64,000 nucleotides of DNA from an uncultured Clostridia bacterium (GCA_947572415.1 CANPBT010000004.1:220-64219), one strand, 5' to 3'. Counted from the stretch's first letter, positions 1-17,811 are shown. Numbers and translations are program-made. Notes: generated by a model not told the origin, from the letters alone.

Positions 1-556
1 TACTTTTATATTTCTCAAATAAATTATATAAAATAGGTTTTATATATGCATCAAAATCCGACACATGCCACTGTGAAGCGGCATAAACAATCTTTATCAC
101 ATTCTCATTATCGTTAACTTGTTCAATAACCTCCGCTGAATTAACTGCTGTGTTAATAACGACAAACCTGTTCTGTTTTACATAACAATAATATTCTTCT
201 CCAATTAACTTGTTTGGGGTTAATAACATTGAACATTCTTTAATACATCTAAGCAACCACTTCCTGCGCAAAGGAAATCTATAAGACTTCCTGGGCAAAT
301 CTTTAAGATCATCATCTAAAAAATATATTAAAAACTTATTATACTTATTAGCTTCTTTTAAAAGCGCGTATGTTGCAGGCGATTCCCCTCTAACACAAAT
401 AATTATATCAGCCCAATTAAATTCATCCAGTTTAATTTTTAAGCTATTTTGTTTTTTTACATTACAATCATAAATGTAAGCAAAACGTGATAAAGCCCTA
501 AAAAGATCTAACAGCGTAGGTTGCTCACTTTCATGTATTAACAGAATATTAGACAT
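1..556 (-). CDS. Polysaccharide-locus protein, N-terminal fragment (gene runs off the left edge); possibly a glycosyltransferase
   Basis: Not in the ORF track. ATG at 556-554 overlaps the flippase stop (ATGTCTAA). I checked every minus-frame triplet down to nt 2 and found no stop. Translation begins MSNILLIHESEQPTLLDLFRAL. Confidence 0.55.
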   Translation of the reverse strand, partial: MSNILLIHESEQPTLLDLFRALSRFAYIYDCNVKKQNSLKIKLDEFNWADIIICVRGESPATYALLKEANKYNKFLIYFLDDDLKDLPRKSYRFPLRRKWLLRCIKECSMLLTPNKLIGEEYYCYVKQNRFVVINTAVNSAEVIEQVNDNENVIKIVYAASQWHVSDFDAYIKPILYNLFEKYKS

Positions 557-2030: not shown

Positions 2031-2033
2031 ACA

Positions 2034-3188
2034 TTAAAATACCGAAAAACTATTTAACCCCTCAAAAAAATACCCCTGAGAATATGATGACATAAACAAC
2101 ATAAAGATTGCATAGCAAACAGTCAATGCTAAGTATTTTTTAGATTTCGCTTTGATTACTCTATTGTTTGTGCCTAAAACTAGATACTGAGATACAACGA
2201 TGTATAATATTAAAAGAATATTTTTAAATAGACGTAAATAAGTAGGGTTAAAAAAATAAAATGGAATAATTATAAAACTAATTAAAAAAATTCGGTTTAG
2301 AATTTCTAATTGTTCACGATTTAGAATAAATTTATAATATTTTCCATATTGCGCTCTCAATGCTTCATAACCAATTTTCTGAACATCAGTTTTATAACTT
2401 ATATAAATAAGCCTAAACAAAAAGTAACCGAACAAATGACAAATAATTGTGGAAACTTTTCCTTTCCAATTCAGCATTTCATCAGTCAGCCCATTTTTCA
2501 TGGCTTCAAAATTAAAGTAAACTAAATATTTTTCATTCTTTATTAATTTTCGAGCAATGCTGTATAACAAATTAAATTGTATACAAAGCATAATTAGTAA
2601 AATAATTGCTATAACAAGTGTTATAAATTTAATATTACTATTTTTCTTTTGAATATTAAATAATTTAACTAAAATAAATGAAAGATAAAATAATGCTGTA
2701 GGTTGAATGAGTGCTGCAATTAAAATAATTAAAATATATCTAAAAATTTTATGTTTTTTATCACAAATAAACTGAACAATACCATAACATACAACAATTC
2801 CCATTAAACCATTTTTTATTTGGGCGATAGAATCAAAGAATGGAAATATTAAGTAAAGAACTAACACCAATGCAACATAAGGTGTTGTTTTTTTTAAAGT
2901 TATAAATGCAATAACGAGAGTTACAGTCGCACAAACCAATTTAAAGACAATAAAATTGCCACCTAACAATTTGGTTAAGTTCATTAAAGCATCAGTCAAA
3001 AATGAATCGCCATATAAACCTTTTTCAAAAATCAGCTTATAGATATCTAAATCCGGTGAGCCGCCATTGCAAAATGTATAAATTAGAAAAAGATATAGTA
3101 AAGCAAAGCATAATGCTAGAGATTTATTCTTATTCTTGATGGTGTATCCAGTAACCGCAACTCCTGCAGTCAATAAAAATAATGCCAC
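2034..3188 (-). CDS. Polytopic membrane protein, EpsG/Wzy-like repeat-unit polymerase
   Basis: 384 aa, hydrophobic almost throughout. It lies between the flippase and the glycosyltransferases, the usual Wzy position. No catalytic motif could be verified. Confidence 0.55.
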   Translation of the reverse strand: MALFLLTAGVAVTGYTIKNKNKSLALCFALLYLFLIYTFCNGGSPDLDIYKLIFEKGLYGDSFLTDALMNLTKLLGGNFIVFKLVCATVTLVIAFITLKKTTPYVALVLVLYLIFPFFDSIAQIKNGLMGIVVCYGIVQFICDKKHKIFRYILIILIAALIQPTALFYLSFILVKLFNIQKKNSNIKFITLVIAIILLIMLCIQFNLLYSIARKLIKNEKYLVYFNFEAMKNGLTDEMLNWKGKVSTIICHLFGYFLFRLIYISYKTDVQKIGYEALRAQYGKYYKFILNREQLEILNRIFLISFIIIPFYFFNPTYLRLFKNILLILYIVVSQYLVLGTNNRVIKAKSKKYLALTVCYAIFMLFMSSYSQGYFFEGLNSFSVF

Positions 3189-3196
3189 TAATACCT

Positions 3197-4117
3197 CTAT
3201 ATATTTTGAATTATTTCATTAACTTGAGAATCAATAAGATATTTATTTAACAGTTCTTTAGGCAAATGCTCGTATGAAGACGCAACAAATTCTTTAAGTT
3301 TATTTAAATCATCTATCCCTAAAATAAATATATTATTTTTATTATAAAAATCAAAGTTGACAATATTTGTATTTGTTGTAATTAATTTAACTTCATTATA
3401 TATTGATTCATAATCTCTCATCGTAGCTCCGACTTGATTGGGCAACGTAATGTTTAAAATCGATTTTGATTTCGTAACCAAGTCGATTACTTCTTCATAT
3501 TCTATTACCTTTGAAAAACCTTTCTTTTTTTTATTTAGCCTTGTTGACGGCATAACAAGAAACTTTGTTTTTAAACCCATATCTTTAAACTGATTTTCAA
3601 GATCAAAAATATATTCGGCTCGCCCTTTATCTCTACCAACAAATACTATATCATATTCTTTATCCCTTTTTTTACCAATAAATGAAGGACAATATCCACC
3701 ACATCTAATCAAGTACAAATTATATTTTTTACTATCATTAGCATCATAGGTACAAATTTTTATTCCTGAGGGTATATTATTAGGCAATAAATGTCTTGCT
3801 TTCCCTACTAAATTTGTATATTCAAATATAATTTTTTTATCAGGATGTATTTTCTTTAACCATAACAAAAATTGTTTTGTTATAATTCCGTCAAAAACAA
3901 TTATATATTTGCCTTCAAATTGTAAAATATTTCGATTGAATAAAATCTTATGCGGAAGCCTTAACTTTACTGCAATCTCTAACATTATTCTGCCAAAAAT
4001 AGTTTTATATCTATATGGTAATTCTACCTGATAACCTGAAGCAATAAGCCCCCTGTTCACATAATTATTATCAGCAGTTATAAATAAAATATCTGATTTA
4101 TTAAATGAAATATCCAT
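3197..4117 (-). CDS. Hypothetical polysaccharide-locus protein (possible GT-B-like transferase)
   Basis: 306-aa ORF that fills the gap tightly in the operon. No motif recognised. Confidence 0.5.
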   Translation of the reverse strand: MDISFNKSDILFITADNNYVNRGLIASGYQVELPYRYKTIFGRIMLEIAVKLRLPHKILFNRNILQFEGKYIIVFDGIITKQFLLWLKKIHPDKKIIFEYTNLVGKARHLLPNNIPSGIKICTYDANDSKKYNLYLIRCGGYCPSFIGKKRDKEYDIVFVGRDKGRAEYIFDLENQFKDMGLKTKFLVMPSTRLNKKKKGFSKVIEYEEVIDLVTKSKSILNITLPNQVGATMRDYESIYNEVKLITTNTNIVNFDFYNKNNIFILGIDDLNKLKEFVASSYEHLPKELLNKYLIDSQVNEIIQNI

Positions 4118-4131
4118 TAATACCTTTAAAG

Positions 4132-5244
4132 CTAACTAATTAAAAAATTTATGATTAATCGGTTTATTTCTTTTGCATCAAATCGAGTTTCTGTAAAAAT
4201 GCAAGCATTCTTCCCCATTTTTTCAACTTCTTCTGGATGTTCTATACACCATAAAATCTTCTTCGCCAATGATTGTACATCTTTTTTTTCTATCATAAAT
4301 CCATTATATCCGTCAATTACAGTTTCTCTACACCCAACATTATTACTTGTAATAACAGCTCTACCTGTAGATTCAGCTTCCATTATTGACATAGGCAAGC
4401 CTTCACGGTACGAGGAAGGCAGCACATAGACAGAACAATCTTCCAAATAATGTCTAACATCTTTCGTAGTGCCTAAGTAATTGATACTTCCGTCATCAAT
4501 AAATTCTTGAATATCAGATATTTTAATATCTCCCTCTGCACCCAAATAATTGAATACTGCATCCGGATACTTTTGTTTAACAATACGTGCCGCCTTGCAA
4601 AACTCCATAACACCCTTTGTTTTGAGCATACGAGCTATCATCAAAAAGGTTCGGTGATTTTTAATTGGCTTATATTCAAAATAATCTAAATCAACGCCGA
4701 TACCGGGAATAACAATGCTCTGCTCTTCTTTTACCAATTTGCGGGAAACAAATTCAGCCTTATCGTCATTATTTAAAAAGTAAACTTTATTTGAGCTCTT
4801 AAATGATTTACGGTACATTTTACAAACAACGGAACGAATGATTCGCCATTTAAGTCCGTTGTTTATAAATACGTCACCTGCGCCTTCAACCATTGAAAAT
4901 ATTTTTTTTACGCCAGCTTTCTTTGCGGCACGCACACCGAAAATATTTGGTTTAAGCATAAAAGTAAAAACAATATCGGGCTTTTCGTCCTTAATAATCG
5001 CCACATATTGTTTTTGCAATTTTTTCATACCTAAAGGATTTAAACTTCTGTTTTGGGAGCAAACAGAATAATACATTACACCTTTCTCTTCAATTTCTGC
5101 TTTAAAATCATCACCCAAAGCAATAACCGACACATATGCGCCTTCATTTTGTAAAGCCTTAATTAATCCTATACGAAAATTAACAACAGTTTGCGAAGAA
5201 CCGCAAATTAATAAAATTTTTTTATTCTGCATTCCGTTGTTCAC
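4132..5244 (-). CDS. Family-4 (GT-B) glycosyltransferase
   Basis: C-terminal EGLPMSIMEAESTGRAVITSNNVGCRETV is the GT4 E-x7-E region. It overlaps the upstream gene by 23 nt, so an internal Met (MQNKKILLICG, start 5232) may be the true start. Confidence 0.85.
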   Translation of the reverse strand: MNNGMQNKKILLICGSSQTVVNFRIGLIKALQNEGAYVSVIALGDDFKAEIEEKGVMYYSVCSQNRSLNPLGMKKLQKQYVAIIKDEKPDIVFTFMLKPNIFGVRAAKKAGVKKIFSMVEGAGDVFINNGLKWRIIRSVVCKMYRKSFKSSNKVYFLNNDDKAEFVSRKLVKEEQSIVIPGIGVDLDYFEYKPIKNHRTFLMIARMLKTKGVMEFCKAARIVKQKYPDAVFNYLGAEGDIKISDIQEFIDDGSINYLGTTKDVRHYLEDCSVYVLPSSYREGLPMSIMEAESTGRAVITSNNVGCRETVIDGYNGFMIEKKDVQSLAKKILWCIEHPEEVEKMGKNACIFTETRFDAKEINRLIINFLIS

Positions 5245-6115
5245 TTTCCGTATCCTCTATTGATTGTAGTAAGGTGTATTTTACATAACTTCCAATATAC
5301 TCACTCATTTCTTTATCATAAGACAAGCTTCCAAAGGCTTTTTTGACAAGACCAGTAAATAAGCCTAAAAACTTGATCGCCCAACCGAAACCGTGTACTA
5401 AGCGCAACTTCCTGCCATTTGCTGCGGCAATCTTTTTTACCATTTCAGAAGTATTCGTATATTCCGAATTTTGCGGGAAGAAAATACCACTCTCTTCATT
5501 CAAAATCATTAAACGAACAAACTCGCACAAATTCTCTATATACAGCATAGAGCGTTCGTTTTTAATATAGGGAAAAAACTTTAATTTTAAAGCAAATTTA
5601 CGCAAAGTTAAATAATTACCTTTACAGCCTTTACCGTAAATCATTGGCGGTCGGAGAATACAAATCTTAAAATTTTCATCGGCAAGAGGAACAATTCCGT
5701 TTTCAGCTTGTACTTTACTGTCGCCGTAAGCGTTCTCGGGAGATACAGGCGTATCCCTTGTAATCATTTTCTTTTTGCCGACTTTACTGCTACTACCGTA
5801 AACAATGGCAGAGCTCATAAAAATAAATTGCTTTACTCCATCCGCCTTTGCTTTATTTGCAGTTTCAACTGTCAAGTCAGTATTTACTGAGTAATACAGC
5901 TTTGCCTTTTCTTCACTTATCTTACCACTATCCGAATGTGCAATTCCCGCAACGTGAAAAACAACATCATAACCTGAAAAGCTTTTTTCTCGCCATGCGC
6001 TATCACGCAAATCAATAGTATCAAAACTGCATTCTTCGGGAAAATGCTCGGATATATATTTTTCAACGGAAGTGCCGATATAACTATGTGCTCCCGTTAT
6101 GAGAACCTTTTTCAA
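5222..6115 (-). CDS. NAD-dependent sugar epimerase/dehydratase (SDR)
   Basis: N-terminal Rossmann motif KKVLITGAHSYIGTSV plus the SDR catalytic Y-x3-K (YGDSK). 4-nt overlap with the upstream gene. Confidence 0.8.
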   Translation of the reverse strand: MKKVLITGAHSYIGTSVEKYISEHFPEECSFDTIDLRDSAWREKSFSGYDVVFHVAGIAHSDSGKISEEKAKLYYSVNTDLTVETANKAKADGVKQFIFMSSAIVYGSSSKVGKKKMITRDTPVSPENAYGDSKVQAENGIVPLADENFKICILRPPMIYGKGCKGNYLTLRKFALKLKFFPYIKNERSMLYIENLCEFVRLMILNEESGIFFPQNSEYTNTSEMVKKIAAANGRKLRLVHGFGWAIKFLGLFTGLVKKAFGSLSYDKEMSEYIGSYVKYTLLQSIEDTESEQRNAE

Positions 6116-6786
6116 TCGGCATTTGCCTCCTCGTCCTGATCATTTTCAAGCTCGCTGTTGGTTGTAGCAATAGCTTCCTCTTCCTGCTTATTGAGTTCGC
6201 CTGTGCCACCTTCGACTACACCGTCGTGCTTGACAACGGATATAAACGTACCGAAGAAACACTTTAAATCGAAGAAAAATCCCATACGCTTAACGTACTC
6301 GCCGTCAAATGCCGCTTTTACCGGAATTTCCAACTCGTCCCTGCCGTTGATTTGCGCCCAGCCTGTAAGCCCCGGTTTAATGTCATTAGCACCGTATTTG
6401 TCACGCTCAGCAATCAAATCGTCCTGATTCCAAAGCGCGGGACGTGGACCTATTATTGCCATTTGTCCTGCAAAGATATTAAAAATCTGCGGAAGCTCGT
6501 CAAGTGACGTTTTTCTTAAAAATCCGCCAACTTTGGTAATCCACTTTTTAGGGTCGCTCAACTTGTGCGTAGGTGCATCATGCGGTGTGTCGATACGCAT
6601 CGTGCGGAACTTTAAAATCTTAAATATCTTTTTCTTTTTACCGACACGGTTCTGTTTAAAAAATACTGGACCTTTACTGTCGCACTTGATTGCCAATGCG
6701 ATTATAAACATTGGAAGAGCCAATATAATTATTCCTAAAAAGGACAGAATTAAATCAATTAATCTTTTGAAAAAATGTTTATACAT
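6112..6786 (-). CDS. Small monotopic phosphoglycosyl transferase (bacterial sugar transferase, PglC/WbaP C-terminal type)
   Basis: One N-terminal membrane helix, then KGPVFFKQNRVGK..F.ILKFRTM and LDELPQ..N...G.M..IGPRP motifs. It has an unusual acidic C-terminal tail (ELENDQDEEANAD). Confidence 0.85.
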   Translation of the reverse strand: MYKHFFKRLIDLILSFLGIIILALPMFIIALAIKCDSKGPVFFKQNRVGKKKKIFKILKFRTMRIDTPHDAPTHKLSDPKKWITKVGGFLRKTSLDELPQIFNIFAGQMAIIGPRPALWNQDDLIAERDKYGANDIKPGLTGWAQINGRDELEIPVKAAFDGEYVKRMGFFFDLKCFFGTFISVVKHDGVVEGGTGELNKQEEEAIATTNSELENDQDEEANAD

Positions 6787-6803
6787 AAATATAAGCCCAA
6801 ATA

Positions 6804-7313
6804 TTATGCTTGATTACGGTATACCGTACCTGCAACAATTTTCGTCTTGGAAGGCACTGCCGCACTGACGGATACCACTCCATTGTAATCAATCTGGCAG
6901 AAATCGTTGACAACGCTGTTATGTCCCACTACACTTCCTGCACAGAGAAACACACCGTTACCGATTACGCTGTTTGCATTGACTGTAACAAATGGTTCTA
7001 TAACACAACCTTTGCCTATTCTTGCAGATGACGAAACATAGCTTTTGTCGGAAATAATATTTACAATCTCAAATCCGATTTGTTCTAGTTCGTTATAAAT
7101 CTTTTGCCTTATCTCAGGATTGCCGATAGCTATAATAGCACAAGAAAACTCTTTTAAAAATTTTTCACTTTCAGAAACTTTACCGATAGCTAATGGATTA
7201 TTATCGTCTATAAACTCAATTTTATTGAACCTACCCGTTTCTGCCGCTAATTCTTTTACTACTTGACCGTAACCTCCAGCACCGAAGATTAACAAATTGC
7301 CATAATGCACCAT
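6804..7313 (-). CDS. NeuD/PglD-family sugar N-/O-acetyltransferase (left-handed beta-helix)
   Basis: N-terminal LLIFGAGGYG nucleotide-binding-like segment followed by hexapeptide repeats (IGKGCVIEPFVTVNANSVIGNGVFLCAGSVVGHNSVV). First gene of the operon. Confidence 0.75.
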   Translation of the reverse strand: MVHYGNLLIFGAGGYGQVVKELAAETGRFNKIEFIDDNNPLAIGKVSESEKFLKEFSCAIIAIGNPEIRQKIYNELEQIGFEIVNIISDKSYVSSSARIGKGCVIEPFVTVNANSVIGNGVFLCAGSVVGHNSVVNDFCQIDYNGVVSVSAAVPSKTKIVAGTVYRNQA

Positions 7314-7430
7314 AATTATAGATTTTATTATACTACATTATATATAGAATTGCAATTGAATTACAAAAATTTTCCAGATGATATTCCTTATTTCTATTAT
7401 TTTGGCTTAATGAAAAGCAATTTATTTAAA

Positions 7431-7468
7431 AATAGCAAAAACAGTTCAGGCATAATTGCCTGAACTGT
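7431..7468 (-). terminator. Intrinsic terminator ending the ATPase/4TM-HRDC operon
   Basis: Perfect 11-bp stem ACAGTTCAGGC / GCCTGAACTGT (7441-7451 / 7458-7468) with a 6-nt loop. An A-run on the plus strand gives a U-tract on the minus-strand transcript. Confidence 0.8.
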
Positions 7469-7485
7469 TTAATTAATTACCCACA

Positions 7486-7537
7486 CAAAGCTTTCTATTT
7501 TATTATTACCGTATGTATTGTGGAATTATTTAGAAAG
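7486..7537. repeat. Left copy of the ~55-nt imperfect direct repeat (decayed duplicate of the spoIIID-like 3' end)
   Basis: Aligns with 12597-12653: 16/21 identical, then an identical 11-mer TACCGTATGTA (7507-7517), then about 16 more matches with two small gaps. Confidence 0.6.
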
Positions 7538-7578
7538 ATCATATTATTTATAAATTAAATTTTATCTATGAATATGTA

Positions 7579-8883
7579 TCATGCCGCACCTTTAAGTTCT
7601 TCATAACTTATTATAATGTGAATAAATAATTCTCCATAAAAATCATATTTCTTCTGCCCCAAGCCATAAATCGAAATAAAAGAATTCTCATCCTTTGGCT
7701 TATAAGTTGCCAAAGCGACTAATTGTTGATTATTGAAAATCATATAAGCTTTTATTCTTTTCTCTTTTGCTAACCTTAATCGTTCTTTTTTTAGTATATT
7801 TAATAATTTAATATCAGTTTTTATTTCTCCATCCACTGAAACTACAACTTCAAATCCATCAACGTTTTCTGTATTATTTGGCTTAGTTTCTTCTTTACGC
7901 TTGTTTATATCCTCTTCTTGGCATATATCTATTTTTGAAACTTTTTCTTTTTTGTTTTCGGAACTTACTGCTTTCTCAGTTTCATTAGTTTCTATAATTT
8001 GATTATAAAGAAATTCAATATCGCATTTACCGAATCTTTCAATATTACATATTTTATTCTCATAAATTGAAATTAATAAATAGTAATAATTTTCTCCTAT
8101 ATCTTTATAAACTAAAATCAATTGGTCATCACCCGTATTAACCTGTATATCTGTAATTGATAAACAATGATTAGGTTGAATAGCCAAATAAGAAAAATCA
8201 TCCCCTATTTGATATATATCACAACCACAAAGTTTAAATAGACCAATTATATAACCAAAGTTATTGCTGATATTCTTGATTTTTAAATTTAATTTCATAT
8301 CTCCAAGCGCACTTTTTACTTTATATTCTGATTCCTTATCCGAATTATCATAAAGTTCGAATATTAAATTATTTTTATCAATTCTTTCGTTTCTTTGTTG
8401 CACAAGAGTATAATGTACTCCCATGATAGTCAGTATAGTCGCAGAAAAAGTTGTAACAGCAGTAAATAGCGATACAATTATTTCTCTTCCCTGTGGTATA
8501 TTAATATAACAGAGTAATAGTACAAAATAAATTGGAACAACCAATATAGCAAAACTTATTAATCCACTTGATAATTTACCCAATTTAAATTGTAGGCTGT
8601 TTTTTAAAAATATCGAAACAACATAACTTATCATTGCAATCAAAGTCAACACAATAAATATGCTAGCTATAATTATTGAAGCAGTATTGAACTCATTTTT
8701 AATTTCGCTTATAGCAAAAACGGTCATTACAGCTAACGCACAAACCAACATCATTATGTATGAAAAAATACCACAAGATGTAAAAAATGAAATCTTATAG
8801 TTTTCCATACGCACAAAAAAATCTTCTTTTCTCTTTTTCCAAAGCGAAAATTTCTTTTTAATTTTTTCAAATCCTTTTATCAT
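7579..8883 (-). CDS. Four-TM membrane protein with an unknown central domain and a C-terminal HRDC domain
   Basis: Basic N-terminus (KKKFSLWKKRKED), four hydrophobic helices in aa ~30-165, and a K/E-rich linker. The last ~70 aa (LLNILKKERLRLAKEKRIKAYMIFNNQQLVALATYKPKDENSFISIYGLGQKKYDFYGELFIHII) match the RecQ HRDC pattern position by position. RBS GGAAGGAAA lies 6 nt before the ATG. Confidence 0.7.
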   Translation of the reverse strand: MIKGFEKIKKKFSLWKKRKEDFFVRMENYKISFFTSCGIFSYIMMLVCALAVMTVFAISEIKNEFNTASIIIASIFIVLTLIAMISYVVSIFLKNSLQFKLGKLSSGLISFAILVVPIYFVLLLCYINIPQGREIIVSLFTAVTTFSATILTIMGVHYTLVQQRNERIDKNNLIFELYDNSDKESEYKVKSALGDMKLNLKIKNISNNFGYIIGLFKLCGCDIYQIGDDFSYLAIQPNHCLSITDIQVNTGDDQLILVYKDIGENYYYLLISIYENKICNIERFGKCDIEFLYNQIIETNETEKAVSSENKKEKVSKIDICQEEDINKRKEETKPNNTENVDGFEVVVSVDGEIKTDIKLLNILKKERLRLAKEKRIKAYMIFNNQQLVALATYKPKDENSFISIYGLGQKKYDFYGELFIHIIISYEELKGAA

Positions 8884-8916
8884 TTGTATTTCCTTCCCAT
8901 AAATTTACAATCACTA

Positions 8917-10152
8917 TCAAATATACCAGAGTTGAAGATGCAACACATATTTCATTAATGCACCGGGTTGTGGACACATACAAATAATTGCTCCCGTGCC
9001 TCGCTTTTTATTTTCCAATTTGTCGAGCACGGTAAACGCCGAAGTTTCGTCAGCCGTTACTTTTACGCCCTGCTTAATTTCGATAGGATACAAAACGCCG
9101 TTCTCTTCGATAATAATATCTATCTCGCTTTCAGCATTTGCTTTTTTATCCTTACCTCGATAGTAAGAAACACAATAACGGTAATCTATCCCACTGTTGG
9201 AATAGGACTTTAATATTTCAGAGATTACGAAAGTTTCAAAGAATGCTCCGCTCATAGCCCCTACTGCTAGCGTTTCAGGTGTGAGCCAACGAGTTAAATA
9301 TGCGGCAAGCCCAGTATCCCTGAAATATAATTTAGGCGTTTTAATAGCTCGTTTCAATACAGCCGATGTGTACGGTTCAAGCAAATATATGATCCCCGAC
9401 GCTTCCAGAATGGAAATCCAATTTTTGACCGTGCCTTGATCTCTTCCGATTTCATCGGCGATATTGGAATAATTAAGCATCTGTCCAGTGCGTGCTGCAA
9501 CCGCAACCATAAACTTTCGGAAGTCGTCCAAATTCTGTACAGCAGAAAGGCTGCGGACATCACGCTCTAAATACGTTTTTACATAACTTGCGTAGAACGT
9601 TCCCCAATCAGCGTTTGGATTTTGTAATTCGGGAAAGCCTCCCCTATGGATAATCTGCCAAATATTCTGCATTTGTTTCGCCGTTTTCCCCCGTTCCTGC
9701 ACATATTCCATCGTCGGCAAGAAGGGCTTGCTAAAACTATCCCCAATAATTTCGCGCAACGAAAGTCCGCTCATTTCAATGATGCCGACGCGCCCCGAAA
9801 GCGATTCGGAAACGTTTTTCATTAGCTCGAACGGTTGTGAACCAGAAAGACAGAACAGGCCCCTTTCGTCCTCTTCGTCGCACTTGATTTTAATATAACG
9901 AAAAAGATCGGTTACTCTCTGCACCTCGTCGTATATGACGGGCGGCTGATTTAACATCATGAACGTATTCGGGTTTTCTTTTGCCTGTTCTTCTATAAAG
10001 GGGTCGTCGAACGAAACGTACTTTTTATCGGCAAATAACCTCTTAATCATCGTAGACTTGCCCGTTTGCCTTGCGCCCGTAACAAGAATACACTTGAACG
10101 CTTTATCATTCTTTTGTACGATTTCTTCGATGCTTCTTTTAATATAATTCAT
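8917..10152 (-). CDS. AAA_14/DUF4143-type ATPase with a C-terminal PD-(D/E)xK-like motif
   Basis: Walker A GARQTGKST, Walker B-like VIYDEVQ, and a C-terminal EIDIIIEENGVLYPIEIK (D...E.K). The track starts at a TTG (10167). The ATG at 10152 (MNYIKRS) is preceded by GGTGA and is the more likely start. Confidence 0.85.
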   Translation of the reverse strand: MNYIKRSIEEIVQKNDKAFKCILVTGARQTGKSTMIKRLFADKKYVSFDDPFIEEQAKENPNTFMMLNQPPVIYDEVQRVTDLFRYIKIKCDEEDERGLFCLSGSQPFELMKNVSESLSGRVGIIEMSGLSLREIIGDSFSKPFLPTMEYVQERGKTAKQMQNIWQIIHRGGFPELQNPNADWGTFYASYVKTYLERDVRSLSAVQNLDDFRKFMVAVAARTGQMLNYSNIADEIGRDQGTVKNWISILEASGIIYLLEPYTSAVLKRAIKTPKLYFRDTGLAAYLTRWLTPETLAVGAMSGAFFETFVISEILKSYSNSGIDYRYCVSYYRGKDKKANAESEIDIIIEENGVLYPIEIKQGVKVTADETSAFTVLDKLENKKRGTGAIICMCPQPGALMKYVLHLQLWYI

Positions 10153-10172
10153 AATTTCACCAAACAAAAAAC

Positions 10173-10203
10173 GACTAATCTCGAATTTAATTCCAGATTA
10201 GTC
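10173..10203 (-). promoter_or_regulatory. Inverted repeat over the transcription start and leader of the ATPase operon (operator or leader hairpin)
   Basis: GACTAATCT-N13-AGATTAGTC is a perfect 9-bp inverted repeat whose spacer can pair internally (GAAT/ATTC). On the transcript it is followed by GUUUUUUGUUUGG and then the SD sequence. Confidence 0.5.
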
Positions 10204-10205
10204 AT

Positions 10206-10234
10206 ATTATAGTCTATCTGCGGAGAAAAGTCAA
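10206..10234 (-). promoter_or_regulatory. Sigma-70/SigA-type promoter of the ATPase/4TM-HRDC operon
   Basis: On the minus strand: TTGACT (10234-10229), 17 nt, TATAAT (10211-10206). Confidence 0.65.
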
Positions 10235-10313
10235 TAGGTAAATTTATCAAACTTTGCTAATAAGCTATGTTTTCTTTGATACAATTTTAAAAGTTCAATG
10301 ATTGCTATTTAAT

Positions 10314-10367
10314 TTATGCATATTTTTGGACATACGATTTCTCGAATTATGCATATTTTTCGACATA
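10314..10367. repeat. Two 21-bp direct repeats spaced 33 bp apart
   Basis: TTATGCATATTTTTGGACATA (10314-10334) and TTATGCATATTTTTCGACATA (10347-10367) are 20/21 identical. A partial third copy AAATGCATA lies near 10405. Confidence 0.6.
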
Positions 10368-10526
10368 TCGTTGATCAGAAATACATTTTAATAATTCAGC
10401 TTAAAAATGCATACGGTTTTTAAACGGAAGTGACATAATCACCGTATCGCATACTATTTAATTCGTCAAGCATTTCTTGAAATTGACTGTGATTTTAAAA
10501 GATTCGTTAGATTGCCTAAAAAGGAA

Positions 10527-12406
10527 TTAAAGCTTATAATAATCCAGAATAAAACTACTATCTTTTTTTCTTTCCGTTTTAAGGTCGATTATAAAATACT
10601 CTTCACCGTTTTTACGAAATTTACCGCGTTTAATATTGTTGCTTATATTTGGAATCCCGTCTTTTTTAGCTGATATTTTATCCGCATAGTATGTCGCCTC
10701 TTTTGTGATTTTATTGATTATTATTAAATCCTCCTGATGCCCCATTTTCATGTTTTGCTCTTTGGCGCATATTTTACACACACGATATCCGCCATGATAT
10801 TTTCTAAATTGTGCGGTTATTGAATACGCATATGGATGACAAGAGATTTTATGATTTTCACATCTCAAATATACCTCTTGCTTTTTCCGCATGTAACTTT
10901 ATCGGGGAAGATTCCCTTTTTGTTGTTAGTATCCCAGTCCCAATACTTTTCAATGAATTCCGGAAACATATCCTTTAAAGATATTTTAGACCTCTTCGAA
11001 GTTTGCTCGTAACCGTTCATTTCAGAATCCGATGATAAGGCTTTCGATTCTGGTTTATCTGCCCATAAATAACCCTTGTACGTTTTGTTAGTATTCAAAT
11101 AATTACTCGTATGCTCTGCATCTCTTACAACTTGCCTAAAACCTGCTTTACATAAGTCTTTATGGCTTTTAAATTCATTCACTATTTTAGAAGTTTTGGG
11201 ATCAATTTGCATAACAGGTTTAAATTTCGCTTCTCTCGACAACTCAATTCCACACTTTTTGCATCCAAATTTTAGCTTACTTACAAGTAACGGCGTTGAA
11301 CGCCAATGATAATCATTATGTTTACGACAAATGAAGTTTTGTTCAATTGTACTTGTATAGCTTATTTTGTTGGGATCCGCATCATTGTTTTCATAATCCC
11401 AATATACTATTGCTTTGTCGCGACATTTCTGAAAGAAGCTATCTTCCGGATTCAACATTCCTTCTCGGTTTTCTCTTCCTCTTGACAATCGACATACTTC
11501 CGACGGACACCCGCTATTAGGTCTAAACCGATTACTTATTATACTTGTCCATTCATGTTTGCAATTTCTGCAAACCCAATGCGCGTAACAGTTCGAATTA
11601 GGCGAAAAATTAAATATCGTAAATCCGGCATTCTTTTTATAGTCCCATTCGGTCGCCAATTCCATTCGTCTAAGTCTTGTTTTATCATCTAAGGTTTTCT
11701 CATACAGCTTTTTAGGTTTATATATCGCAAGTATCTTCATGCAATCTTCTTTGACGTCTATTTTAACCTTATTACTTATAAATTTGTTAATTTTATCAAT
11801 GAAGAATTTTTCAATTACCGCTTGCATTTGAGTAAAATTACTTTCTTTGTAATAATATTCCGCTTCTAATTCTTTTTCGCTTTTTTTATAAGCATAAAAT
11901 CTTATTAACTCATAATTATGATCAACCAAAAGTTTAGCCTTACGCAAATCAATATCCTTCTGTTCCTGAACACAGTGCTTAACTCCGTTGTGTTCAATTA
12001 CAAACCTAAATTCAGGAGCAGTCAATACGATATCGGCCTCATACTTTCCGTTTGCTTCGGGAATACCTAAATCTTTAAACGAAGCACGCCTTCTGAGTAC
12101 CCATTTCAACTGTTTATTATTTTGACAAGCACTTTTAAGATAAAAATATATAGCAGACTCACCAAAAGATTCCGAATTTTTATTACAGTACGGGCAACCG
12201 GTTGCTTTTACATCCTTTGTCCTATTGCTGAACGAGGTTTTCCACCCACGTCCGCATTTACAGCATCTCCAAAATACGTCTTTTGACTTTTTACCGTGTA
12301 TTATTTCATCGGGATAAAGTCCGTTTTTATTATTCTTTTTAAAATCCCATTCTTTTTCAATAATGTCTAAATATTTTTTTTGTTTATATTCGTCCGGTTT
12401 GTTCAT
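10527..12406 (-). pseudogene. Frameshifted nuclease gene: multiple zinc ribbons, PD-(D/E)xK core and NUMOD-like modules (homing-endonuclease-like)
   Basis: Two ORFs (10865-12406 and 10527-10892) overlap by 28 nt. The fourth W-x-C...C-x2-C zinc-ribbon repeat is split between them: YWDWDTNNKKGIFPDKVTCGK is followed in the other frame by QEVYLRCENHKISCHPY...RVCKIC. An A5 run (10882-10886) lies in the overlap. A nuclease-like core (YEADIVL...FVIEHNGVKH) follows ribbon 1. Confidence 0.7.
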
Positions 12407-12453
12407 AAATATTCTCCTAAAACAATACGCGTTGGGAAATATTCTATTTCAAT

Positions 12454-12484
12454 ATTATAACACCATATACTATCAATATGTCAA
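12454..12484 (-). promoter_or_regulatory. Candidate extended -10 promoter for the zinc-ribbon nuclease gene
   Basis: On the minus strand: TTGACA (12484-12479), a long 19-nt spacer, then TGTTATAAT (TG-n-TATAAT, 12462-12454). RBS AGGAG lies before the ATG at 12406. Confidence 0.45.
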
Positions 12485-12542
12485 TTATATGAATTCAAAA
12501 ACAGCGGCGCCAAGAAAAAAATCTTGTCGCATCGATATCATG

Positions 12543-12573
12543 AAAAAAAGCGGGCTCGTAAGCCCACTTTTTT
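12543..12573 (-). terminator. Bidirectional-looking intrinsic terminator after the SpoIIID-like remnant
   Basis: A7 - GCGGGCT CGTA AGCCCAC - T6. The stem has 6 of 7 positions paired. Confidence 0.65.
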
Positions 12574-12596
12574 GTGAGGTTAGTTTATTATTAATA

Positions 12597-12653
12597 CAAA
12601 CCTTTCCATTATGTTACTACCGTATGTACGGTTGATTTGGAAATATTGAAATG
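12597..12653. repeat. Right copy of the ~55-nt imperfect direct repeat
   Basis: Covers the last ~10 codons, the stop and the first 3'-UTR bases of the SpoIIID-like ORF. See the left copy at 7486-7537. Confidence 0.6.
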
Positions 12654-12737
12654 TTTTGCCGTTGAACGAACAGTTGAATTTGTTTCTATTATATATTTAC
12701 TCTCTTTAATAACCCTCTCTGCAATATAATCGTACAT
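12609..12737 (-). CDS. spoIIID: SpoIIID-family HTH protein, truncated (42 aa against ~90 aa for the full protein); possibly a pseudogene
   Basis: Not in the ORF track. MYDYIAERVIKESKYIIETNSTVRSTAKHFNISKSTVHTVVT matches my recollection of B. subtilis SpoIIID residues 1-38 (MHDYIKERTIKIGKYIVETKKTVRVIAKEFGVSKSTVH) at about 25/38 positions. RBS GGAGGT precedes the ATG. The ORF stops right after the recognition helix. Confidence 0.6.
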   Translation of the reverse strand: MYDYIAERVIKESKYIIETNSTVRSTAKHFNISKSTVHTVVT

Positions 12738-12760
12738 TTACGGTACCTCCACGTAATTAA

Positions 12761-12791
12761 ATAATATGCGAAAAAGAGTCGGTATATACCG
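12761..12791 (-). promoter_or_regulatory. Possible sporulation-type (sigma-E-like) promoter plus a 12-bp palindrome upstream of the SpoIIID-like ORF
   Basis: On the minus strand: GGTATATACC, 14 nt, CATATTAT. The palindrome is CGGTATATACCG (12780-12791). The match is to a consensus recalled from memory only. Confidence 0.25.
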
Positions 12792-12795
12792 AAAC

Positions 12796-13374
12796 TTATC
12801 GAAGAATGCTTTCAATGCGCTCAAGCACTTTGTCAAGCCCCTGCCGCGTCTGCGAGGAAACGGCGATAATGTTGTCCGAGCCGCACTTGAACGTTGCGGC
12901 TATGTTTGTAATACTACGCGCTGCCGCCGCCTTTGAAAGCTTGTCGGCCTTGGTCGCGATTACGGTAAACGGCAACACATTATAATACAAATAGCTTATC
13001 ATTTGTTTATCGTCCTCCGTTGGGTCGTGACGTAAATCGCAGAGAGCAAATATGTGAGCCGCATTTTTTTCTGCAAAAAACCGCTCCAGAAGGCGCGCCC
13101 ACTTGGCTTTTTCCTCTTTGGATACGCGTGCAAAGCCGTAACCGGGCAAATCCGCAAGCACAAAATCTCCGAAATCGAAATAGTTTACAAGCCTTGTTCT
13201 ACCCGGGTCCTTTGAAACTCTGGCAAGCTTATTTTGATTGGCAAGCATATTAATAAAGCTTGACTTGCCAACATTTGACTTGCCGCATACAGCGATTACA
13301 GGCTTGTCCGGCTTTATGAATTGCGCCTTGCTCGCCGCGCTGGTTATAAATTTTGCATTTGTGATTTTATACAT
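12796..13374 (-). CDS. engB: Ribosome-biogenesis GTPase EngB/YsxC
   Basis: G1 motif GKSNVGKSSFIN and G3 motif DLPGYG. Conserved position downstream of lon. Confidence 0.9.
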   Translation of the reverse strand: MYKITNAKFITSAASKAQFIKPDKPVIAVCGKSNVGKSSFINMLANQNKLARVSKDPGRTRLVNYFDFGDFVLADLPGYGFARVSKEEKAKWARLLERFFAEKNAAHIFALCDLRHDPTEDDKQMISYLYYNVLPFTVIATKADKLSKAAAARSITNIAATFKCGSDNIIAVSSQTRQGLDKVLERIESILR

Positions 13375-13375
13375 T

Positions 13376-15682
13376 TTAAATACCTATAATGGCAGACCTG
13401 AATACCGTATCCACTTCGGTTACGGGTATAAAATTTATACTTTCACGGATTTTTTCGGGAATTTCTTCAAGGTCTTTCTTATTATCGGCCGGTATTATCA
13501 CGTCGCGAATACCAGTGCGATACGCCGCAAGCGCCTTTTCTTTAAGTCCGCCGATAGGCAGAACTTTGCCGCGCAAAGTAATTTCACCGGTCATAGCCAC
13601 ACTCTTTTTTACTGGCTTGCGGGTAAATGCGGAAAGTATGGCAGTTGCCATGGTTATACCGGCGCTGGGTCCGTCCTTTGGCGTTGCTCCCTCCGGAACG
13701 TGAATATGAATATCCGTCTTTTCAAACGAGGACCTGTCTATACCGTAGCTTTCGCTGTTGGAGCGAATATAACTTATCGCCGCGCGGGCGCTCTCTTTCA
13801 TAACGTCGCCGAGTTTGCCGGTAAGCAGAATATCGCCTTTACCGTGCATTGCCGAAACCTCTATGGTAAGAGTGGTGCCGCCCACCGCCGTCCAGGCAAG
13901 CCCCGTTGCCGCGCCCACTTCGTTGCGCGTCAATGCCCCGCCGTCTTTTTCATACCTCTTCGCGCCGAGAAAATCGGCAAGGTTGCGCTCGGTAACGCTG
14001 ACTTTCGTGGCTTCGCCGTCGGCAAGCTTTACGGCGGCTTTTCGGCACAGCGCGTCAATCTGGCGTTCAAGCCCGCGCACTCCCGCTTCCATAGTATATC
14101 CGTCGATAATCGCGTCGAGAGCCTTGTCCGTTATGGAAATTTCGGAAGCTTTCAGCCCGTTCGCCTCCCGCTTCTTGTTGACGAGATAGCGTTTTGCAAT
14201 TTCTTTTTTCTCTTCGGGGGTATAGCCGGTAAGTTCTATAATTTCCATCCTGTCCAAAAGCGGAGCGGGGATAGTTTCCAAACTGTTCGCGGTAGTTATG
14301 AAAAGTACCTTGCTTAAATCGTAAGCGACCTCGATATATCTGTCTACAAAAGTAGAATTTTGCGCAGGGTCGAGGACTTCTAAAAGCGCGTCCGCGGGGT
14401 CGCCGCGCAAATCCGATGAAATTTTGTCGATTTCGTCAAGCAGGAAGACAGGATTGACCGAACCTGCCCTCTTCATACCGCTTATAATCCTGCCGGGCAT
14501 CGAGCCGACGTAGGTTTTTCTGTGACCTCTTATTTCGGCTTCGTCTTTGACGCCGCCGAGACTCATACGCACAAATTTTCTGCCGAGCGAACGGGCTATA
14601 GAGCTGACGATAGAGGTTTTTCCGACGCCGGGAGGCCCTACGAAACATAAAATAGGCGCGTTCATACCGCCGGTACGCTTCAATACCGCAAGGTATTCCG
14701 TTATGCGCTTTTTAATTTTTTCGAGCCCGTAATGGTCGGCTTCGAGAATACTTACCGCGTCGACAAGCTTTTCCGTATCGGTCGTTTTTTCGTGCCACGG
14801 AATATCGAGCATCCAGTCGAGGTACACCCTCAACACGTTATAATCGGGCGAGGAGGTCTGCATTCTCGACATACGCGAAAGCTCCTTCAGGGCCTTCTGC
14901 TCCGCCTCCTCGGGCATACCTTTTTCCTTTATTCTGCGTTCGAGCTCGTCGCGCTCCTCACCGTCGTCGCCGAGCTCGGCGTGGATGGCTTTAAGCTGCT
15001 CGCGCAGATAATACTCTTTCTGATTTTTATCTATATTCTGCCTTACGACCGAATTGATTTTGCGTTCGAGCCGAATGATTTCTATTTCGTCGTTTAAAAA
15101 TCTGTCGATTTTTTTAAGTCTGTCCACCACGCGCGGGCACTCCAAAAGCTCCTGCTTCTGCTCGGTTTTGAGCTGCAGACTGCTTGCGGCAATGTTGACG
15201 AATTCGTCCGGGTCGCCGCACTTATCGAGCGCCGCCAGCGTATCTTTACTTATTCTGTTATCCGCGGAAGTTATGTCTTTGAGTATCTCTTTCGACGTCC
15301 TGAAATACGCCTCCTCCAACGACCTGTCGCCGTGAACGGGCGTTATTTCCTCAACCGTGGCTATAAAAGTTCCGCCCTCTTTTACAAGCTGTCTGGTAAC
15401 CGCGCGAAAAAGCCCCTCCACCGAAATGCGGAGGTTGTTGCCCGGAAGACGCGTTATCTGTTTAAGCTTAACAACCGTGCCCGCCGGATATATATCGTTT
15501 TCGCCAACGTCTTCCTTTTCGGACTGCTTCTGTGCGCATACGTATATGAGCGAGCCGTGATCGGCCGCATACTTGACCGCCGCGAGAGAAATCATTCTTC
15601 CCACGTCGAAATTAACCGTAGTATCCGGAAAAACAACCCTGCCGCGCAATGCAAGCAAAGGGAATTCCTGAAATTTAGGCAT
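13376..15682 (-). CDS. lon: ATP-dependent Lon protease (LonA)
   Basis: 768 aa. LON N-terminal domain, Walker [10 protein letters not shown], and the proteolytic serine motif [14 protein letters not shown]. Confidence 0.95.
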
Positions 15683-15711
15683 TTTATTCTCCTTTGAGTT
15701 TCTTAAAAGTA

Positions 15712-15746
15712 CGCGCTAAACGCGCCCTGACGGCGCGTTTAGCGCG
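15712..15746 (-). terminator. Perfect 15-bp hairpin between clpX and lon (terminator or attenuator)
   Basis: CGCGCTAAACGCGCC - CTGAC - GGCGCGTTTAGCGCG. Confidence 0.6.
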
Positions 15747-15770
15747 GAATACTTTAAATATTTCTTAGGC

Positions 15771-17000
15771 TTACGCCGTCTTTTTATATATAATTTTGGG
15801 CTCCGCCCTGTCCGTCACGCACTCTTTGGTAACGACGACCTCTTCCACGTTCTTTTCGGACGGAAGTTTGTACATTACGGAAGTCATAAAACCTTCTATA
15901 ATAGTCCTCAGCCCTCTTGCTCCCGTCTTTAAACGTATGGCGGTGTTCGCTATTTCACGTACCGCGCCCTCGTCAACGGTAAGTTTAACGCCGTCCATTG
16001 CAATGAGCTTCTGATACTGCTTTATTATGGCGTTTTTCGGACGGGTTAAAATATTGACGAGCGCGTCCTCGTTCAAAGGATGCAAACTTACGACTATGGG
16101 CACGCGCCCGACGAATTCGGGTATGAGCCCAAAGCTCGTCAAATCCTGCGGCTTTACGTCGCAGAGCATTTCGTAAACGTCGTTTTCGTTATCCTTTACC
16201 TTGCCGCCGAAGCCGAGAGACGTGTTATCCTTGCGCTTCTGCACGATTTTATCCAGCCCGACGAAAGCGCCGCCGCAAATAAACAGAATGTTTGTCGTAT
16301 CTATTCGCAGACATTCCTGCTGAGGGTGCTTTCTGCCGCCCTGCGGAGGCACGTTTGCAACCGTGCTTTCGATAATTTTTAAAAGCGCCTGCTGCACGCC
16401 CTCGCCCGAAACGTCGCGGGTTATGGACACGTTTTCGCTCTTCCTAGCGATTTTATCGATTTCGTCGATATAAATTATACCGCGCTGCGCCTTTTCGATA
16501 TCGTAATCGGCATTCTGAATAAGCTTCAAAAGAATATTTTCCACGTCCTCGCCGACGTAGCCCGCCTCGGTGAGCGTTGTCGCGTCCGCCGCGGCAAAGG
16601 GCACGTTCAGGATTTTAGCGAGCGTGCGCGCAAGCAAAGTCTTTCCGCAACCCGTAGGGCCCAGAAGAAGAATGTTGCTTTTTTCGATTTCCACATCGAC
16701 GTCCGCCTCGCTCTTTTTAACGGGCGTGTTGTTTATGCGTTTGTAATGGTTGTAAACCGCTACGGACAGAACTTTTTTCGCCTCGTCCTGACCTACGATG
16801 TATTTGTCGAGCTCTTCCTTTATTTCCGCAGGCTTTTTCAAGGGCACGGGCGTCAGCTCCGCATCGTCCAGATCCCTTACCATATCTCCGCAGATTGTAA
16901 CGCACTCGTCGCAGATGCAGGCGCCGTTCTGACCACTGATAAGGCGGCTCACTTTATCTTCGGATTTACCGCAAAACGAACAAAATCTCTTTTCTTTCAA
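15771..17000 (-). CDS. clpX: ClpX ATPase/unfoldase
   Basis: N-terminal zinc-binding C-x2-C...C-x2-C (CSFCGK...CDEC), Walker A GPTGCGKT, and IYIDEIDK. Confidence 0.95.
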
Positions 17001-17147
17001 GCTTTCTCCTTTCGCTCAAATGTTTTGCGCAGCAAAGCATTTGCAGCGAGTTTGCTATTGTCGTAAAAACGCTTAACGGCGGAAATCAATCCCACCTTGC
17101 GTTTTTTCGTCATTAAATATTTTAAATATAATTTTGGGTTAAAATGC

Positions 17148-17195
17148 GTTTCAAAAAGTTTTAACGCGCAAACCGTTGCGCAGACTTTTTGAAAC
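17148..17195 (-). terminator. Compound hairpin downstream of clpP
   Basis: Outer 12-bp stem GTTTCAAAAAGT / ACTTTTTGAAAC enclosing an inner GCGCAA-ACCG-TTGCGC hairpin. Confidence 0.5.
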
Positions 17196-17214
17196 GTAGA
17201 ATTTTATAAATTTC

Positions 17215-17811
17215 TTATCTCTTTACGAACACTTTATCTATAAGCCCGTAAGCCTGCGCTTCCGCAGCCGACAAATAATTATCCCTGTCGGTGTCGCGCT
17301 CGATTTCGGCGAGCGGTCTGCCCGAATTTTTAGCAAGTATTTCATTCAGCTTCTGCTTGGTGCGCAGTATGTGCTCCGCCGCGATTTTGATATCGCTTGC
17401 CTGACCCTGCGCGCCGCCGAGGGGCTGATGAATCATGATTTCGCTGTTCGGAAGGGCGAATCTCTTGCCCTTTGCTCCGCTGGAAAGAAGGAATGCACCC
17501 ATGGAAGCCGCCATACCGATACATATAGTCGACACGTCGCACTTGATATAATTCATCGTATCGTAAATCGCAAGTCCTGCGGAAACCGAGCCGCCGGGGC
17601 TGTTTATATACAACGATATATCTTTCTGCGGGTCTTTCGCTTCGAGATATATAAGCTGCGCGACTACCGTATTTGCAACCGCGTCGTCGATTTCGCCGCT
17701 TAAAAATATAATTCTGTCCTCTAAAAGTCTGCTGTAAATATCGTACGAACGCTCCCCGCGGGAGGTCTGTTCCACAATGTAAGGCACTAACGCGCCGCGT
17801 TCTCTTTCCAT
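17215..17811 (-). CDS. clpP: ClpP proteolytic subunit
   Basis: 198 aa. The catalytic Ser context GMAASMGA and MIHQP are present. Confidence 0.95.

Follow-up and report, generated by a model that had tools for sequence, protein, structure and literature searches.

PDC-S01 is a single-gene defence candidate that was proposed through guilt-by-embedding and ranks as the fourth commonest defence candidate in prokaryotes (PMC12988326), and it outnumbered every other single locus in 6,530 rumen genomes, occurring 10,358 times (PMC13356809). The literature handles it as a single-gene candidate (PMC12988326, PMC13356809). Its members combine a P-loop ATPase, a winged helix-turn-helix (wHTH) and a PD-(D/E)xK fold, the 'ATP-binding proteins' of COG1373 (AAA_14 plus DUF4143) are of the same kind, and DUF4143 is counted in the PD-(D/E)XK superfamily (PMC3424549). 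Here, we analysed a 64-kb window, that is, the whole stretch of DNA presented from an uncultured Clostridia bacterium, in which a PDC-S01 gene (gene 1) is followed by a gene for a four-transmembrane protein ending in an HRDC domain (gene 2), both within a unit at 7439-10234 on the minus strand. Gene 1 shares with PDC-S01 the full-length profile match and the identical architecture, and differs only in having a second gene apparently co-transcribed with it. A first-pass annotation of the window had taken the two genes for a self-contained system with a candidate role in defence. Our analysis gives about an even chance to a different explanation, namely that they are two evolutionarily separable single-gene modules which have been joined in one transcription unit within a variable island.

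For gene 2, the described systems offer partial likenesses. In Kiwa, a membrane part (KwaA, a tetramer with four transmembrane helices per protein) is coupled to a cytoplasmic DNA binder (KwaB, DUF4868), the action of which is on phage or plasmid DNA after its ejection (PMC11785009). The principle that we propose for gene 2 is alike, as an analogy only, and Kiwa differs in using two polypeptides with DUF4868, whereas gene 2 is one polypeptide with an HRDC domain. The KwaA and KwaB models of PADLOC matched neither gene 2 at E ≤ 1 nor its relatives at E ≤ 0.1, and judged by these profiles gene 2 is not a Kiwa member. The two- and four-transmembrane effectors of CBASS and the SLATT proteins are likewise small multi-transmembrane modules with a cytoplasmic sensing domain that occur in defence islands, but no cyclase or other signal-generating partner is present with gene 2; the transmembrane-effector models gave insignificant, composition-driven matches in relatives (E 0.001-0.04) and none in gene 2. 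The HRDC domain of the RecQ family (PF00570; 1wud) agrees with that of gene 2 over 70 gap-free residues, in fold, and in the equivalent of Tyr555 (Y380), but gene 2 is devoid of helicase, RQC and nuclease domains, and its HRDC domain is tethered to a four-transmembrane anchor via a beta-sandwich and a linker. No family model or paper describing this arrangement of HRDC domain and membrane anchor was found.

Layout of the two-gene unit

The unit comprises the following features.

10234-10206, minus strand: sigma-70-type promoter TTGACT-17-TATAAT, 11 of 12 consensus matches
10168-10187 and 10189-10208, minus strand: arms of a leader palindrome, over the predicted transcription start
8917-10152, minus strand: gene 1, 411 aa, ATG start
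8884-8916, minus strand: spacer between gene 1 and gene 2, 33 nt, holding the ribosome-binding site of gene 2 (GGAAGGAAA)
7579-8883, minus strand: gene 2, 434 aa
7439-7470, minus strand: intrinsic terminator with a 14-bp perfect stem, a 4-nt loop and a T-run

The near-consensus promoter described in the first-pass annotation was found as such, and it was the top-scoring promoter-like site in a scan of 7300-12900; it would serve gene 1 and probably gene 2 too. The 33-nt distance between the open reading frames (ORFs) and the separate ribosome-binding site of the second were also as described. The terminator stem is perfect, as had been claimed, but it is 14 bp long (7439-7470) and not 11 bp (7441-7468). 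Because a sequence scan revealed neither a terminator-like nor a good promoter-like site between the two genes, co-transcription is the simplest reading, and a plausible one. Gene 1 had been listed as an ORF at 8917-10167 opening with TTG; its true start is almost certainly the ATG at 10152, since the orthologue in locus L017 begins MNYIKRS (homologous loci and proteins carry L and P numbers throughout).

An obligate pairing of the two genes is unlikely

Homologues of gene 2 were found in 13 distinct contexts, 12 of them informative upstream. An AAA_14/DUF4143 gene lies directly upstream in three of the 12 (the window, L017 and L004/L005); it is absent from this position in L001, L006, L008, L009, L010/L025, L011, L012, L013 and L022-L024, and tblastn detected no PDC-S01 remnants beside the solo gene 2 homologues. 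The DNA similarity between the window and the four closest of these loci follows gene 2 closely, beginning 4-17 nt upstream of its ATG in L004, L011 and L012 and 3 nt inside the ORF in L006, and ending in all four within about 50 nt of the stop codon. At the spacer, the G+C content falls from 0.43 to 0.27. The gene 2 homologue of L012 has its own near-consensus promoter (TTGACG-17-TATAAT). In L017, the gene 1 orthologue is intact (86% identity), and about 1,050 nt of gene 2 have been deleted between short direct repeats (window 8824-8859 and 7755-7790), which left a 54-aa HRDC stub. Across these contexts no obligate pairing was observed, and an obligate pair is unlikely because of the pairing in three of 12 contexts, the G+C mismatch, the ORF-limited homology, the separate promoter in L012 and the loss of gene 2 in L017. 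The same observations, together with the number of gene 1 homologues (at least 7,993 strong ones, versus about 29 clusters for gene 2), argue for two separable modules.

The partners have not diverged to a comparable degree. Between the window and L004, the gene 2 proteins are 62% identical, whereas the PDC-S01 proteins share Walker A alone (BLASTP); the L004 gene, which lies 51 nt upstream of the gene 2 orthologue in L004/L005, belongs to another PDC-S01 subfamily (PDLC04787, E 3e-153). The first-pass annotation had held beforehand that its proposal would fall if the two families showed no conserved co-occurrence across genomes, and such co-occurrence is largely lacking.

Gene 1 as a member of PDC-S01

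Pfam searches of gene 1 returned AAA_14 (E 3.9e-25) and DUF4143 (E 1.3e-42) with weak wHTH matches between them, giving the order AAA_14 P-loop ATPase, wHTH and DUF4143 PD-(D/E)xK domain. Residues 1-392 matched positions 8-398 of the 422 in the PADLOC profile PDLC04790 of PDC-S01 (E 6.6e-95). Walker A (G26..GKS), Walker B (D75-E76) and the C-terminal nuclease-type D...E.K motif (E343-x-D345, E358-x-K360), which the first reading had named, are present. No solved structure was detected for gene 1 by sequence search. Among 8,000 candidates scored, at least 7,993 homologues reached E ≤ 1e-50, and more than 120 clusters reached at least 76% identity, the best public match standing at 89% (P0106). 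Relatives labelled 'ATP-binding protein' are carried by 82 plasmids from other phyla, with Moraxella, Rhizobium and Agrobacterium among the genera. This wide distribution of solo homologues is consistent with the autonomy of PDC-S01. By its full-length profile match, gene 1 is an ordinary member of an already catalogued and very abundant single-gene defence candidate; what is new at the locus is gene 2, which represents a rare and lineage-restricted family.

Architecture of the gene 2 protein

The gene 2 protein begins with a basic N-terminal helix, followed by four transmembrane helices, an immunoglobulin (Ig)-like beta-sandwich, a long helix, a K/E-rich linker, a beta-hairpin and the HRDC domain. 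The AlphaFold2 (AF2) model was built on a 24-sequence alignment and has a mean predicted local distance difference test score (pLDDT) of 81, with low confidence in the linker.

8416-8883, minus strand: basic N-terminal helix and four transmembrane helices, gene 2 residues 1-156
8020-8370, minus strand: Ig-like beta-sandwich of ten strands, gene 2 residues 172-288 (AF2)
7816-8019, minus strand: long helix, linker and beta-hairpin, gene 2 residues 289-356
7579-7815, minus strand: HRDC domain, gene 2 residues 357-434, and stop codon

The hydrophobic segments span residues ~31-63, 64-97, 101-132 and 135-156. Because the N-terminus is basic (11 K/R versus 4 D/E) and the loop between the second and third segments is rich in K, the positive-inside rule, together with hydropathy and charge, predicts an N-in/C-in topology with the sandwich and the HRDC domain in the cytoplasm. 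The conserved residues cluster on the cytoplasmic face, where they form the loop F99-x2-G102-x4-G107, the motif G155-V-H157-Y158 at the cytoplasmic end of the fourth transmembrane helix, and the start of the sandwich. In the 24-sequence alignment, where identity to the window protein falls as low as 36%, 43 positions are invariant; these include N204, N208, G210, G214, Y232, P237, Y259, D261, Y267, Y268 and C287 of the sandwich and the motif K330-E-x-T333-K-P335 in the region of the linker (289-356).

Modelled by itself, the sandwich reached a pLDDT of 88.8 and a predicted template-modelling score (pTM) of 0.83. Foldseek comparison with the PDB found nothing below E 1e-3 (best E 8e-3, template-modelling score at most 0.44), and the weak matches to actinoporins, archaeal pilins and FN3/Ig domains were set aside as denoting a 'generic beta-sandwich' only.

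Library matches of gene 2 were confined to the last 70 residues, where Pfam HRDC, the tail of TIGR01389 and, via HRDC, the DpdF models were found; residues 1-350 had no significant match to a Pfam, NCBIfam, PHROG or PADLOC model. The HRDC domain scored E 7e-15 with PF00570 (55.2 bits against a cut-off of 23.8 bits; residues 359-424, profile 3-68 of 68), it aligned with the HRDC domain of Escherichia coli RecQ over 70 aa without a gap, and its five-helix AF2 model superposed on 1wud, from the same RecQ, with a template-modelling score of 0.92 and a root-mean-square deviation of 0.9 Å (Foldseek). Further Foldseek matches were 2rhf and the HRDC domains of BLM, WRN, RNase D and Rrp6. The protein does not belong to the RecQ helicases, given that TIGR01389 gave 52 bits against a cut-off of 640 bits and that no helicase Pfam model matched. 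Tyr555 of E. coli RecQ is important in the binding of single-stranded DNA (ssDNA) and 3'-overhang DNA (PMC1616949). Its aligned residue in gene 2, Y380, is kept by at least 90% of the family members.

The first-pass annotation fared well on gene 2. The basic N-terminus, the four transmembrane helices and a cytoplasmic remainder are supported by hydropathy and charge; the domain of about 120 aa that it could not place is a beta-sandwich of about 115 aa that found no significant match in the libraries or the PDB; the C-terminal RecQ-type HRDC domain was borne out by profile search, alignment and superposition; and the membrane-anchored HRDC arrangement, which it did not recognise, is covered by no family model over residues 1-350. 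The combination of four transmembrane helices, sandwich, linker and HRDC domain thus appears to be undescribed and new at the level of both family and architecture.

Distribution and relatives of gene 2

The full architecture of gene 2 was found in 29 clusters among 5.8 billion proteins, all Clostridia-like, in four loci among 185,579 species-representative genomes (GTDB; Lachnospiraceae, 'Borkfalkiaceae' and unclassified Clostridia metagenome-assembled genomes), and in two short loci of the JGI metagenome set. The G+C content of gene 2 is 0.25-0.31 in all 13 loci, and that of the flanks 0.35-0.52. An exhaustive profile search omitting the HRDC domain returned 43 proteins only, and the transmembrane-plus-sandwich module had no true matches in the phage and plasmid collections IMG/VR, INPHARED and PLSDB.

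Close relatives that have no HRDC domain stop after the sandwich, as does the 286-aa protein P0034, whose cluster is found on contigs of up to 34 kb. A more distant sister family of 270-300 aa (P0049-P0067) has the same layout of four transmembrane helices and sandwich, and hhalign aligned its profile with that of gene 2 (probability 99.6%, E 1.4e-23) from the loop between the second and third transmembrane helices through the whole sandwich. In BFVD, two phage proteins of about 250 aa gave remote matches to the fold over about 240 columns (A0A8S5R7G4, E 2e-6; A0A6G5Y3T4, E 2e-5). The sister family and the phage proteins share the four transmembrane helices and the sandwich with gene 2, but they do not have its linker and HRDC domain, and they are equally uncharacterised. 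Because such relatives exist, the membrane module plus sandwich is the conserved core, and the HRDC domain an add-on. P0036 (414 aa), in which the sandwich is cut short and followed by a WYL-like C-terminus (PADLOC WYL, E 2e-4), may be a domain swap, a truncation, or a chimera of assembly or rearrangement, and was not used as evidence of an alternative sensor.

Gene 2 was found at 100% identity in public assemblies (P0001 and P0070, contigs of up to 120 kb). Compared with the 89% of the best gene 1 match, this suggests recombination between strains at the junction of the two genes. The gene has been inactivated repeatedly, with at least four independent disrupted alleles: the deletion in L017; a homologue in L025 that is split into 174 and 241 aa; P0071/P0075/P0080, in the cluster at ≥90% identity with the window gene 2, with a foreign junction after residue ~230 (...SITDIQV, tail IPESPRNLPKCLISTKSKSPRFTKN) that was found on several contigs from three sources; and P0076+P0079, another near-identical allele from that cluster, found broken into two 202-aa ORFs on one 8.9-kb contig. 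Frequent loss beside strongly conserved intact copies is suggestive, though only that, of a gene that is costly, conditionally useful and dispensable.

Defence genes near gene 2

Known or candidate defence genes lie within about 6 kb of gene 2 in seven of the 13 contexts, a small sample counted without a formal background.

Window: PDC-S01 (gene 1 itself)
L017: PDC-S01, type I HsdM, DUF5677
L004: PDC-S01, MkoA-like 1,529-aa helicase
L006: type I restriction-modification, capP-like M78 peptidase, bSEFIR, TIR
L013: HKD/SNF2, DUF4391, type III methyltransferase
L022: HipBA, PDC-S41, DUF2971
L010: ParA-like protein, HEPN

The flavour of a defence locus that had been sensed in the window was supported, gene 1 being a PDC-S01 gene and these seven contexts holding restriction-modification, TIR/SEFIR, Mokosh-like, HEPN, HipBA or PDC genes. 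The context of L001 borders an element that bears an integrase. In L022, the gene 2 homologue shows 39% identity, and after it come HipBA, PDC-S41 (a Schlafen-like helicase) and DUF2971.

Two further observations concern these loci. At L022 354-1349, and also in L023 and L024, a 331-aa RNase III-like protein with an RNase III domain and a double-stranded-RNA-binding domain exceeds the typical length of Rnc. Downstream of the pair in L004 (5991-13786) lie a 175-aa protein that had no match, the 1,529-aa MkoA-like AAA_11/AAA_12 helicase and a 734-aa protein that had no match; among the three proteins scanned, the Mokosh (Mko) model matched the 1,529-aa helicase only.

Proposed mechanism and alternative explanations

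Under the explanation by two separable modules, gene 1 would act autonomously, as a nuclease or sensor of the NTP-dependent kind that is assumed for PDC-S01, recognising and cleaving foreign nucleic acid. For gene 2, we infer DNA binding, a role in defence and an effector activity. Its functional core would be the bundle of four transmembrane helices with the sandwich docked on the cytoplasmic face, and the HRDC domain, hanging from a flexible and charged linker, would bind DNA in single-stranded or branched form at the membrane's inner face; such DNA might be that of an entering phage or plasmid, or its first replication intermediates. Bound DNA might either be retained at the membrane or cause a signal to be passed to the core, which would then be the effector, acting by exclusion or by membrane damage. 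A further and tentative proposal, which we regard as rather unlikely, is that the membrane module plus sandwich, with or without HRDC, constitutes a new single-gene system with which gut and rumen Clostridia counter mobile elements. The RecQ-type HRDC domain would catch invading DNA on the cytoplasmic side of the membrane, and the system could be plugged in downstream of differing nucleases (the two PDC-S01 lineages and the RNase III-like protein) that would degrade the captured nucleic acid.

Several points weigh against separable modules with a role in defence. As the PDC-S01 lineages of the window and L004 are unrelated beyond Walker A, the adjacency to gene 2 has arisen at least twice, which is in favour of some link between the two genes, as is the presence of defence genes in seven of the 13 contexts. 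PDC-S01 makes up roughly 0.06% of rumen-genome genes (from the counts in PMC13356809 and an assumed ~2,500 genes per genome), and by a rough estimate made with no formal test, two independent same-strand adjacencies in 12 contexts are improbable by chance, unless islands are more than 10-fold enriched in PDC-S01. Moreover, in L022-L024 a gap of 21 nt separates the gene 2 homologue from an RNase III-like gene upstream, and variable nuclease partners for gene 2 are conceivable. HRDC domains mediate protein contacts, not DNA binding, in some proteins. Six of the 13 contexts hold no defence genes (L001 among them, the other five with nothing relevant), and the absence from the phage and plasmid collections leaves the gene 2 family with no direct link to mobile elements. 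Validation by experiment is still awaited for most candidates of the PDC kind, and PDC-S01 itself is unvalidated (PMC12988326).

A genuine but facultative two-gene system, in which gene 2 brings the PDC-S01 ATPase-nuclease to DNA at the membrane or activates it there, or a toxic membrane effector is under the control of the ATPase, would account for the 33-nt spacing between one promoter and one terminator with no internal signals, for the recurrence of the same pair in L017, including the promoter-proximal palindrome and the gene junction, between different flanks, and for the placing of a second, unrelated PDC-S01 gene in L004/L005 and of the RNase III-like nuclease in L022-L024 at 51 and 21 nt, respectively, upstream of gene 2. 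We nevertheless hold such a system to be unlikely in view of the nine informative contexts that have no AAA_14/DUF4143 gene, a gene 1 lineage that is larger than that of gene 2 by orders of magnitude, the G+C mismatch and ORF-limited homology, which point to separate acquisition, and L017, which keeps gene 1 after the loss of gene 2; the ExK motif of the L004 partner is possibly degenerate as well (IYIQ, in an uncertain alignment).

The defence role of gene 2 also has to be weighed against a lineage-specific membrane tether for the cell's own DNA, serving chromosome or forespore handling or DNA uptake, whose link with islands would then be incidental. As a module, HRDC binds nucleic acids in a generic way and has a regulatory role in RecQ-type helicases, the six contexts that hold no defence genes are metabolic or housekeeping ones, SpoIIID-like fragments occur near the gene in the window, L004 and L008, and the hosts are probably spore-forming Clostridia, all of which would suit such a tether. 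A housekeeping function of this kind is hard to reconcile with a family so rare and patchy (four loci in 185,579 species genomes), with a G+C content always far under that of the host, with a position that varies among related genomes, with repeated pseudogenisation and with the frequent adjoining of defence genes, and it is accordingly improbable.

Should gene 2 act in immunity or exclusion, an HRDC domain would for the first time be found outside helicases and RNases, as a reader of nucleic acid that is tethered to the membrane, and the gene 2 module of four transmembrane helices and beta-sandwich would define a new family of about 40 clusters for which Pfam, NCBIfam, PHROGs and PADLOC have no model. 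Its repeated location behind unrelated PDC-S01 genes would provide a concrete handle on PDC-S01, which is among the most abundant prokaryotic defence candidates. If, on the other hand, the two genes are independent, the locus cautions that tight operon-like spacing in defence islands does not by itself define a system.

The island and its surroundings

The window is part of a chromosome. From the sizes and order of the ORFs at 12796-19165, these were assigned as tig, clpP, clpX, lon and engB, with only engB checked against Pfam, and a low-G+C capsule/glycan locus occupies 549-7313. An AT-rich variable island of 5.1 kb, which contains gene 1, gene 2 and a frameshifted zinc-ribbon gene, separates the capsule locus from that end of the tig-clpPX-lon cluster at which engB and the spoIIID fragment lie. 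The G+C content is 0.27 in gene 2, 0.43 in gene 1 and 0.34 in a neighbouring ORF of 513 aa, against 0.49 in the tig-lon core, in keeping with the AT-rich setting seen in the first reading. The features of the island outside the two-gene unit are as follows.

7469-7527, strand not assigned: distal copy of a 59-nt imperfect direct repeat, 75% identity between copies
12580-12638, strand not assigned: proximal copy of the 59-nt repeat, overlapping the 3' end of the SpoIIID-like fragment
12609-12737, minus strand: SpoIIID-like N-terminal fragment of 42 aa, ending ...SKSTVHTVVT*
10527-12406, minus strand: frameshifted DUF4379 gene, 513 aa plus 121 aa, outside the operon

The 59-nt repeat brackets the island and contains a small palindrome (ACCGTACATACGGT); in L004, the two copies have a single counterpart (2985-3103), just upstream of the PDC-S01 gene. 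The repeat may indicate a hot spot of recombination, or it may be an att-like remnant. The end of the SpoIIID-like fragment (...SKSTVHTVVT*) is identical in L004 (2957-3070), and in L008 the gene 2 homologue has a SpoIIID-like start (8653-8724) about 370 nt downstream; the fragment may be a conserved mini-ORF or a shared pseudogene. An excisable element interrupting spoIIID was considered and rejected, the C-terminal half of SpoIIID being nowhere in the window.

That both genes are the decaying cargo of a former mobile element, devoid of current function and adjacent through repeated insertion at a recombination hot spot, is improbable: the flanking 59-nt repeat, the frameshifted DUF4379 neighbour, the truncated spoIIID, the mosaic locus suggested by best public matches of 100% for gene 2 and 89% for gene 1, and the many broken gene 2 alleles would agree with it, but both ORFs of the window are intact with their invariant motifs kept, they are served by a near-consensus promoter and a strong terminator, and the 43 invariant positions among 24 sequences with identity down to 36% imply purifying selection.

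The 513-aa ORF carries three DUF4379 treble-clef zinc-ribbon repeats (E 1.9e-32) around a core that, read by eye, is nuclease-like (YEADIV...VIEHNG..H), and it had no PADLOC match. After a shift at an A-run near 10885, its frame runs on into the overlapping 121-aa ORF; the two look like one homing-endonuclease-like gene of about 630 aa, broken as a pseudogene or by a sequencing error.

Leader palindrome and upstream repeats

The 9-bp inverted repeat that had been reported over the transcription start and leader is the perfect core (GACTAATCT/AGATTAGTC) of a longer palindrome with 20-nt arms that are 85% complementary. As RNA, it would fold with -16.8 kcal/mol (z = -4.1), and a U6GUUU run follows it. 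The palindrome (ACTAATCTnGAA..TTCnAGATTAGT) occurs once in the 64-kb window, and its sequence is conserved in three loci: the window, L017 (~6640-6680), where it is upstream of the gene 1 orthologue, and L012 (2756-2791), where it stands about 430 nt upstream of the gene 2 homologue, in inverted orientation with respect to it, and scored as a terminator in the scan; gene 1 is not present near the L012 copy. No structured RNA or riboswitch was found in the leader or the island by Rfam at E ≤ 1. The palindrome could be an operator or an attenuator/terminator-like element, two readings that are inseparable here because the sequence has been kept across the three loci rather than covarying.

Two copies of a direct repeat of 21 nt (TTATGCATATTTTTGGACATA; 10314-10334 and 10347-10367; 95% identity, 33 nt apart) precede the gene 1 promoter by 80-130 nt, and the palindromic core TATGCATA is present in each. 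These repeats may be binding sites of a regulator.

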